Below, piece by piece: positions 40,401-43,400 of a stretch of DNA of 64,000 nucleotides; within the stretch, counting starts at the first letter, position 1, and every line of letters starts with the position of its first letter. This DNA comes from Escherichia coli (GTDB lineage Bacteria > Pseudomonadota > Gammaproteobacteria > Enterobacterales > Enterobacteriaceae). Where the stretch lies: NCBI RefSeq assembly GCF_036507355.1, contig NZ_AP027877.1; one strand, written 5' to 3'. Position numbers: made by a program.

Positions 40401-43400
40401 CTGGCGAAAATCGAACAGCTTACCGGTGTGCGCGATCCTGCTGGCGTTGCCTGTGAACCTTTCCGCCAGTGGGTAATCGAAGATAACTTTGTTGCCGGAC
40501 GTCCGGAATGGGAAAAAGCGGGAGCAGAACTGGTTAGCGATGTACTGCCTTATGAAGAGATGAAGTTGCGCATGCTCAACGGCAGTCATTCATTCCTGGC
40601 GTATTTGGGCTATCTTGCCGGATATCAGCACATTAATGACTGTATGGAAGATGAACATTATCGTTATGCGGCGTATGGCTTGATGTTGCAGGAACAAGCG
40701 CCGACGCTGAAAGTGCAGGGCGTTGATTTGCAAGATTACGCTAACCGATTAATTGAACGCTATAGCAACCCGGCGTTACGTCATCGAACCTGGCAGATTG
40801 CGATGGATGGCAGCCAGAAATTGCCACAGCGGATGTTGGATTCTGTTCGCTGGCATCTGGCGCATGACAGCAAGTTCGATCTGCTGGCGCTGGGCGTCGC
40901 GGGTTGGATGCGTTATGTCGGTGGTGTTGATGAACAGGGAAATCCGATAGAAATCAGTGACCCACTGTTACCTGTTATTCAGAAGGCTGTACAACGTAGT
41001 GCCGAAGGGAAAGCGCGCGTCCAGTCATTGCTGGCGATTAAGGCAATCTTTGGTGATGATTTGCCAGACAATAGCTTGTTGGTGATGCTGCCAACTTACT
41101 GATTTAGTGTATGATGGTGTTTTTGAGGTGCTCCAGTGGCTTCTGTTTCTATCAGCTGTCCCTCCTGTTCAGCTACTGACGGGGTGGTGCGTAACGGCAA
41201 AAGCACCGCCGGACATCAGCGCTATCTCTGCTCTCACTGCCGTAAAACATGGCAACTGCAGTTCACTTACACCGCTTCTCAACCCGGTACGCACCAGAAA
41301 ATCATTGATATGGCCATGAATGGCGTTGGATGCCGGGCAACAGCCCGCATTATGGGCGTTGGCCTCAACACGATTTTACGTCACTTAAAAAACTCAGGCC
41401 GCAGTCGGTAACCTCGCGCATACAGCCGGGCAGTGACGTCATCGTCTGCGCGGAAATGGACGAACAGTGGGGCTATGTCGGGGCTAAATCGCGCCAGCGC
41501 TGGCTGTTTTACGCGTATGACAGGCTCCGGAAGACGGTTGTTGCGCACGTATTCGGTGAACGCACGATGGCGACGCTGGGGCGTCTTATGAGCCTGCTGT
41601 CACCCTTTGACGTGGTGATATGGATGACGGATGGCTGGCCGCTGTATGAATCCCGCCTGAAGGGAAAGCTGCACGTAATCAGCAAGCGATATACGCAGCG
41701 AATTGAGCGGCATAACCTGAATCTGAGGCAGCACCTGGCACGGCTGGGACGGAAGTCGCTGTCGTTCTCAAAATCGGTGGAGCTGCATGACAAAGTCATC
41801 GGGCATTATCTGAACATAAAACACTATCAATAAGTTGGAGTCATTACCTAGCTTGTTTACTGCAAAAGTGATGGAAGCGTACTTGTCTTTATTAGCGCAT
41901 GGCGCGAAAGCGACCGTGGCGAAATATTCCGTGAAGTAAAAAAAGCAATGCCGCCATCGGCGGCATTCACACGCTTAGTTCATGCCGAGACGAATCAGGT
42001 CCAGAGGTGCCAGTTTCTCTTCACAACCTTCAACAACTACGGTTTTTCCGCGGCGGATTTGCTCAGCGGTCAGACCTTCAGTATCAATCGACAGGATCTT
42101 GCCAGTGTGACCGGTGCCGCTAACCATAACACGGCTGCCAGTGGTGATTGCGTTACGGTTACGATCGTAGGTCGTCATAGGTGTTTTCTCCTTTCTGATT
42201 TACAGTCGAAGCCCACGTAACGGGCGCAATATAAATACTCCTGTCGAGTGAAATATTTTTTGTTTTTGATCAAGCTCACATCTTTTTTGATGCATGCATG
42301 AGCCATAAGGCGGGGGTAAAGACTCTCATCCCGGATGGGATGAGAGGAAATGAATTACTCTTCGCTAAACCAGTCGCTGTTTTCCTGGCGGATCTGGCGC
42401 ACGGATTCGCTGATTTCCTGCAAATGTTGCGTCATTGCACGTTCTACCGCATCGCCATCACGTTTTTGCAGGGCAGAGAAAATATCAAGATGCTGGCGTA
42501 ACAGCATTTCTGGTGGAGAAACGTGGTCGAAACTCATATAGCGCACGCGATCAACGGTCGCTTTCAGGTTCTCAATGGTATCCCACGCCAGTTGACAGTC
42601 GGCAATCTGCGTCAGGAGTTGATGGAAGTTGTCATCAAGTTCAAAAAAATCATCCAGTTGCTTGCGCTCAATGGCAATGCGTTGCTGGTGAAGATTTTGT
42701 TCCAGTTGGTAGCACTGGCTTTCGGTAATCATGCTCGCCGCCCGACGTGCCACCGCGCACTCAATGGCCTGACGGATAAAACTGCCGTTGCGCACCTGGG
42801 ACATGGAAATTTTGTTGACGTAGCTGCCACGCTGCGGACGAATTTGAATCAGACCATTTTCCGCCAGTTTAATAAAGGCTTCACGAACCGGCTGGCGTGA
42901 CACATTGAAACGAACAGAAACTTCTTTTTCCGACAACGGTGTGCCTGGAGCAATCAGGCAATGGACAATGTCGCGACGAAGGATACGATAAATTTGCTGA
43001 TTGACAGGCTGTGTGGGATTAAGTTGCGTTTCGACGGTCATTCGTTCTTGCTTGTGAGTGAGTTAACTGCATGAGTCTACCACTTTTTTGTGACAAGCAA
43101 TAACCCGGCAGTTACGCCGGGTATAAAAATTACTGACGGTGGACATTCAGTCCGGCATAGCTTTGGGTAACCGGCATCATTTCCAGGGTATTGATATTGA
43201 CGTGAGCAGGCAGCGTTGACACCCACCAGACGGCTTCGCTGACATCTTCTGGCGTCAATGCAACGGTATTTTGATAGGTTTTTTCCGCTTTACTGTCATC
43301 GCCTTTAAAGCGGACATTGGAAAACTCGGTGCCACCCACCAGACCCGGTTCGATGTCGGTGACGCGCACCGCCGTACCATGCAGATCCGTACGCAGATTC

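Follow-up and report, generated by a model that had tools for sequence, protein, structure and literature searches.

A complete IS1 element flanked by a 9-bp target-site duplication interrupts ydfI close to its 3' end in an Escherichia coli chromosome

IS1 and the ydfI gene of E. coli

Insertion sequences of the IS1A/IS1R type, known from E. coli K-12 and from R plasmids, are 768 bp long, are bounded by imperfect 23-bp inverted repeats, carry insA and insB' linked by an A6C motif and are flanked by a 9-bp target duplication. Production of the transposase through a frameshift, staggered cutting of the target and repair of the resulting gaps are established steps of IS1 biology, and the target-site duplication amounts to 9 bp, occasionally 8. 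All these features are shared by an element found at positions 41081-41848 of the window, that is, the whole 64-kb stretch of E. coli DNA that was analysed here. The element shows no structural difference from the IS1 of K-12 or R plasmids; only its insertion site, codon 460 of ydfI, is particular to the lineage.

The assignment of the interrupted gene to ydfI, already made in the original prediction, is borne out by 98-99% nucleotide identity to the annotated ydfI genes of K-12 and PapRG-06-5, by a gene order (ydfJ-ydfI-ydfZ-rspR-ydfG-dcp) and orientation identical to those of the references, and by the near-identity of the restored protein with PDB 4IM7 ('hypothetical oxidoreductase ydfI'). 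The latter comes from E. coli CFT073, and the 486-aa restored protein can be aligned with it over the full length, with about a dozen substitutions. The restored protein is also homologous to the mannitol 2-dehydrogenase of P. fluorescens (PDB 1LJ8), and contains the Pfam domains Mannitol_dh (PF01232, residues 23-272) and Mannitol_dh_C (PF08125, residues 280-471). With the NCBIfam fructuronate reductase profile NF011611 (cut-off 603 bits), it scores 646.2 bits, and the truncated protein 627.8 bits. By these profile and homology matches, YdfI is a member of the long-chain mannitol-dehydrogenase family, closest to fructuronate reductase.

In K-12, YdfI is annotated as 'putative oxidoreductase' only, and no biochemical characterisation of the protein was found in a full-text literature search that included papers mentioning ydfI. 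The rspAB-ydfJ-ydfI cluster has reportedly been proposed, in a study of low-efficiency mannonate dehydratases, to serve in the catabolism of L-gulonate, fructuronate or mannonate.

The IS1 element and its footprint

The element occupies exactly 768 bp between two copies of a 9-mer, a result on which the reading of the sequence and a script check agree. It starts with the canonical left end of IS1, GGTGATGCTGCCAACTTACTGAT, and ends with ...ATCAATAAGTTGGAGTCATTACC, the longer stretch at its 3' end being ...AAGTTGGAGTCATTACC. The inverted repeats at its two ends measure about 23 bp and are imperfect. The left repeat (IRL, 41081-41103, plus strand) and the right repeat (IRR, 41826-41848, minus strand), which reads GGTAATGACTCCAACTTATTGAT as its reverse complement, agree at 18 of 23 positions according to the script check. 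When up to 3 mismatches were allowed, the left end matched a single place in the 64-kb window, and this match is exact. A promoter-like site overlaps the IRL (41088-41115). The transposase genes run in the same direction as ydfI, with insA (91 aa) at 41136-41411 and the insB' reading frame, listed as a 167-aa ORF, at 41330-41833, both on the plus strand. The motif TTAAAAAAC (41385-41393, plus strand) is the predicted site of the programmed -1 frameshift that fuses insA to insB'. Both frames are intact, and a -1 frameshift modelled at this A6C motif (41385) yields an uninterrupted 232-aa InsAB' scoring 245 bits with the NCBIfam IS1 transposase profile NF033558 (cut-off 100 bits). Over its whole length, the element differs from IS1A of K-12 at 2 of 768 positions, and many IS1 copies on E. 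coli plasmids are 100% identical to it. By its length, its ends, its frameshift motif, its 9-bp duplication and its near-identity to known copies, the element is an IS1 in every sequence-level respect. With two mismatches to IS1A, intact insA and A6C motif, a full 232-aa InsAB' and a transposase score above the profile cut-off, the claim that this IS1 is complete is upheld, and all the sequence requirements for transposition are intact in this copy.

The two copies of the 9-mer TAGCTTGTT lie at 41072-41080 and 41849-41857, and the 64-kb window contains no third one. The chance that a given 9-mer recurs exactly at the other end of an element is about 4^-9, i.e. about 4e-6. Deletion of 41081-41857, which removes the IS1 together with one repeat copy, restores a ydfI ORF of 1461 bp encoding 486 aa. 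This ORF aligns without gaps with ydfI of PapRG-06-5 (11 nucleotide and 3 amino acid differences; 99.2% nucleotide identity) and with that of K-12 MG1655 (b1542; 28 nucleotide differences, 8 amino acid substitutions; 98.1% nucleotide identity). In the PapRG-06-5 gene, the 9-mer occurs once, at nucleotides 1371-1379, precisely at the insertion point; in K-12, ydfI reads TAGTTTGTT at this place. The single 9-mer in the empty site of PapRG-06-5, together with the perfect repeats in the window, marks the event as a simple transposition of IS1 in which 9 bp of the target were duplicated. The perfect duplication that had been claimed is indeed present, and the simple insertion claimed along with it agrees with the fact that excision gives back a gap-free reference gene. 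One point of the original prediction has to be turned around. It had held that finding the 9-mer only once in the uninterrupted locus would speak against the reading; a target-site duplication predicts exactly one copy there, as is seen in PapRG-06-5. The junction sequence between ydfI and IS1 is CAGACAATAGCTTGTTGGTGATGCTGCC.

The window therefore carries the footprint of a simple insertion: the flanks are contiguous in the reference, and the neighbouring DNA was neither lost nor inverted. It could nevertheless be proposed that the IS1 was left behind by a larger event mediated by IS1, such as an adjacent deletion, an inversion, a cointegrate or a recombination between two IS1 copies. IS1 is known to cause such rearrangements, and two other strains show what they may look like at this locus, since in C10 a partial IS1 adjoins a ydfI whose N-terminal part is deleted, and in EC09 a portion of ydfI next to the IS1 is missing. 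However, in the window the same 9-mer is found on both flanks, which become exactly contiguous in the reference once the IS1 and one copy are taken away, the gene order on either side is that of the reference, and only one IS1 is present. The gap-free collinearity of the excised ydfI with the reference refutes a larger rearrangement, the probability of which we consider negligible.

A second possibility is that the IS1 copy within ydfI was put there by an assembly error caused by repeats. IS1 is a multi-copy element (median of about 10 places in each E. coli genome), assemblies are well known to go wrong at repeats, and a search of 5,426 complete RefSeq genomes of E. coli brought up neither of the two IS1-ydfI junctions. 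However, an assembly error would not leave two perfect copies of a 9-bp sequence that is present once in the empty site. Moreover, the left junction is seen again in the independent draft GCA_905398585.1, a contig of which is identical to window positions 36702-41152 (0 mismatches over 4451 bp) and ends 72 bp into the IS1; short-read assemblies end their contigs at repeats such as IS1. The exact 466-aa protein encoded by the interrupted gene is found on 3-4 contigs (NCBI, Logan), and GenBank entry BED22386.1, 'putative oxidoreductase YdfI [Escherichia coli]', encoded on a contig of 4,643,937 bp, corresponds exactly to this product (window 39702-41099). The independent left junction and the exact protein in GenBank make an assembly artefact so unlikely that we give it next to no weight. 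The BED22386.1 entry is labelled as an ordinary protein, and not as an interrupted gene or a pseudogene.

It is thus almost certain that a single intact IS1 transposed into codon 460 of ydfI on an E. coli chromosome. According to the known steps, the InsAB' transposase would have been produced through the -1 frameshift at the A6C motif and would have joined the ends of the IS1 to a target whose strands had been cut 9 bp apart. Gap repair would then have copied the 9-bp target TAGCTTGTT onto both sides of the element.

The truncated gene and its predicted product

The interrupted reading frame (39702-41102, plus strand) encodes 466 aa, corresponding to 459 native codons followed by LVMLPTY, and terminates at a TGA located inside the IRL. 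Codon 460, TTT (Phe) in the native gene, is split after its second base, so that the first base of IS1 turns it into TTG (Leu) at 41079-41081. GTG ATG CTG CCA ACT TAC TGA then follows. The ydfI frame had been described as entering the IS1 and stopping after 7 IS-encoded codons; seven new codons are found, of which one is a hybrid and the other six lie wholly within IS1. The altered C-terminus that had been announced is therefore real at the level of the ORF, which ends in seven non-native residues, while the product lacks the last 27 native ones (460-486). In comparison with 4IM7, K-12 b1542 and the family of 1LJ8, the window allele is thus distinguished by the absence of residues 460-486 and by the presence of LVMLPTY in their place.

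The displaced 3' end of ydfI extends over 41856-41939 on the plus strand, and comprises 27 codons (FTAKVMEAYLSLLAHGAKATVAKYSVK) and the TAA stop codon at 41937-41939, with no start codon of its own. These codons are left behind as an untranslatable remnant. Their number and the position of the stop codon are as originally described, but the frame starts at 41856 and not at 41858, since the first displaced codon, TTT, takes two of its bases from the right repeat copy. The IS1 and one repeat copy together measure 777 bp (259 x 3), and therefore the two parts of ydfI are in one frame.

What becomes of the protein can be approached through its family. The cut after residue 459 falls within the Mannitol_dh_C domain (280-471). 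The restored protein reaches position 484 of 486 in the fructuronate-reductase profile and position 481 of 482 in the tagaturonate-reductase profile; with the former, the truncated protein stops at 464. Furthermore, solved homologues can be aligned with the lost tail, 1LJ8 up to query residue 480 and 7RK4 up to residue 483. By these alignments with profiles and solved structures, the lost segment belongs to the conserved portion of the fold. An AlphaFold2 single-sequence model of the restored YdfI (mean pLDDT 35.8, pTM 0.28) places a low-confidence helix at 459-482 and is too poor to judge the lost segment.

It may be argued that the enzyme of 459+7 residues is still a working one, and that the insertion is phenotypically silent or merely alters the C-terminus. 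Indeed, 94% of the protein is kept, with the Rossmann domain and the greater part of Mannitol_dh_C, and the score of the truncated protein is still above the fructuronate-reductase cut-off. However, the cut lies within the Pfam C-terminal domain, the lost tail matches three family profiles and the two solved homologues up to their last positions, and PGAP calls comparable IS1-split ydfI genes pseudogenes. A working truncated YdfI therefore seems doubtful to us, although it deserves to be kept in mind. From the conservation of its tail, the truncated YdfI is probably non-functional or unstable, with its catalytic core kept and a conserved C-terminal segment gone.

Effects on neighbouring genes are a separate matter. 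The next gene, ydfZ (41975-42178, minus strand), is convergent with ydfI and has its own hairpin terminator between the two genes (41947-41967, minus strand). For this reason, no polar effect of the insertion is to be expected from the gene arrangement.

Occurrence of the allele and state of the locus

Among the 5,426 complete RefSeq E. coli genomes, some matches resemble the window allele at first sight. The lone row covering more than 80% of the right-junction query corresponds to a chance extension, with 86.5% identity, at a different IS1. With a 2.3-kb query, 14 rows of full coverage were obtained, but each consists of three joined pieces with the IS1 at other positions, and does not represent the same allele. 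The orientation of IS1 common to these co-occurrence hits is an artefact of the search, which joined pieces on the same strand. In the same set of genomes, the core flanks of the window (1-19427 and 41849-64000) find best identities of 99.3% and 98.9%, respectively, with best hits that include O55:H7, O157:H7 and O145:H28 strains. With identities no higher than this, the source lineage is not represented among the complete RefSeq genomes. Consequently, the absence of the junctions from this set says little on the frequency of the allele within its own lineage.

Other disruptions of ydfI have occurred independently. IS1 is found in ydfI of strain J31 (near nucleotide 207) and, with accompanying deletions, in the 5' region of the gene in EC09 and C10; in strain G3/10, it lies in the ydfJ-ydfI spacer. 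These four unrelated strains share with the window an element of the IS1 family at or next to ydfI and a Qin-type prophage background in which ydfJ is truncated, but their insertion points differ from that of the window. Moreover, the other IS1-disrupted ydfI alleles lose most of the protein, whereas the window allele loses only the last 27 residues. In addition, an allele with a premature stop, encoding 255 aa, is present on 422 contigs. Taken together, the independent IS1 alleles and the 255-aa allele suggest that ydfI is dispensable.

These observations raise the question of whether ydfI is a hot spot for IS1, or whether its loss is positively selected, so that the insertion would be adaptive and not a matter of neutral decay. 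Such a view draws support from the independent IS1 events in this region, of which there are at least five (the window, J31, EC09, C10 and the intergenic case of G3/10), and from the widespread premature-stop allele. However, a crude estimate, based on about 10.8 chromosomal IS1 places per genome, an effective target of about 4.8 kb in about 5 Mb and 5,424 genomes, leads to some 28-56 co-occurrences expected by chance, against 14-15 observed. As the observed co-occurrence is below this crude expectation, the hot spot was rejected, and we hold either form of the proposal, hot spot or selection, to be very improbable. A more speculative version is that the loss of ydfI is recurrently selected in some niches, the IS1 and premature-stop alleles having arisen in parallel as adaptive changes that inactivate a cryptic pathway for sugar acids (rspAB-ydfJ-ydfI), or else that the 459+7-residue enzyme keeps an altered activity; this too we regard as a long shot. 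Under the reading of a simple transposition into a dispensable gene, the insertion in ydfI would be one further step in the decay of the locus.

The state of ydfJ is informative in this respect. The gene is split by the remnant of a defective Qin-like prophage (about 20842-38326). Its first 93 nucleotides are found at 20749-20841, 17.5 kb away from the rest, and the sequences at the two junctions overlap by 11 bp, as is the case in K-12. The 3' portion (38327-39612, plus strand) contains a 427-aa ORF starting at 38329, and in other strains with the same configuration PGAP labels ydfJ as a pseudogene 'missing N-terminus'. The prophage remnant is itself reduced. In comparison with that of strain ETEC1701, about 7 kb are missing (int, xis, exo, dicB, dicA, dicC), and only the 3' end of the integrase gene is left.

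Two elements of the IS3 family were also observed in the surroundings. The first, of 1263 bp (19428-20690, minus strand; orfA 20325-20627, orfB 19471-20289), lies between the stop codon of rspB and the orphaned 5' fragment of ydfJ, and presumably resembles IS600. Positions 888-891 of the reference used here match both of its sides, which is consistent with a target duplication of 3-4 bp. The second, of about 1.2 kb (22370-23586, minus strand; orfA 23256-23540, orfB 22387-23199), is located within the prophage remnant, at a position where the Qin prophage of K-12 and the prophage of ETEC1701 have no such element. With its split ydfJ and two nearby IS3-family elements, the neighbourhood of ydfI is already decaying.

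It does not follow that ydfI had fallen silent before the IS1 arrived. A terminator-like hairpin of 12 pairs followed by a T-run, recognised by its match to the consensus, is found in the ydfJ-ydfI spacer (39619-39646, plus strand). Because of this putative terminator after ydfJ, the splitting of ydfJ by the prophage is no proof of a silent ydfI. The two genes need not share a transcript, and ydfI may have had its own promoter and been expressed until it was hit by IS1.

The type of event described here is textbook and routine, and the allele has already been deposited, annotated there as an ordinary protein. For annotation, the consequence is that ydfI should in this case be flagged as interrupted by IS1 and probably a pseudogene, and not as a 466-aa oxidoreductase as in BED22386.1. 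Since the ydfI::IS1 junction is absent from the complete RefSeq E. coli genomes, it can be used as a lineage marker. Beyond annotation, the importance of the finding is slight: IS-driven decay around the Qin prophage and the rspAB-ydfJI locus of E. coli is already known, and the insertion is a further instance of it.
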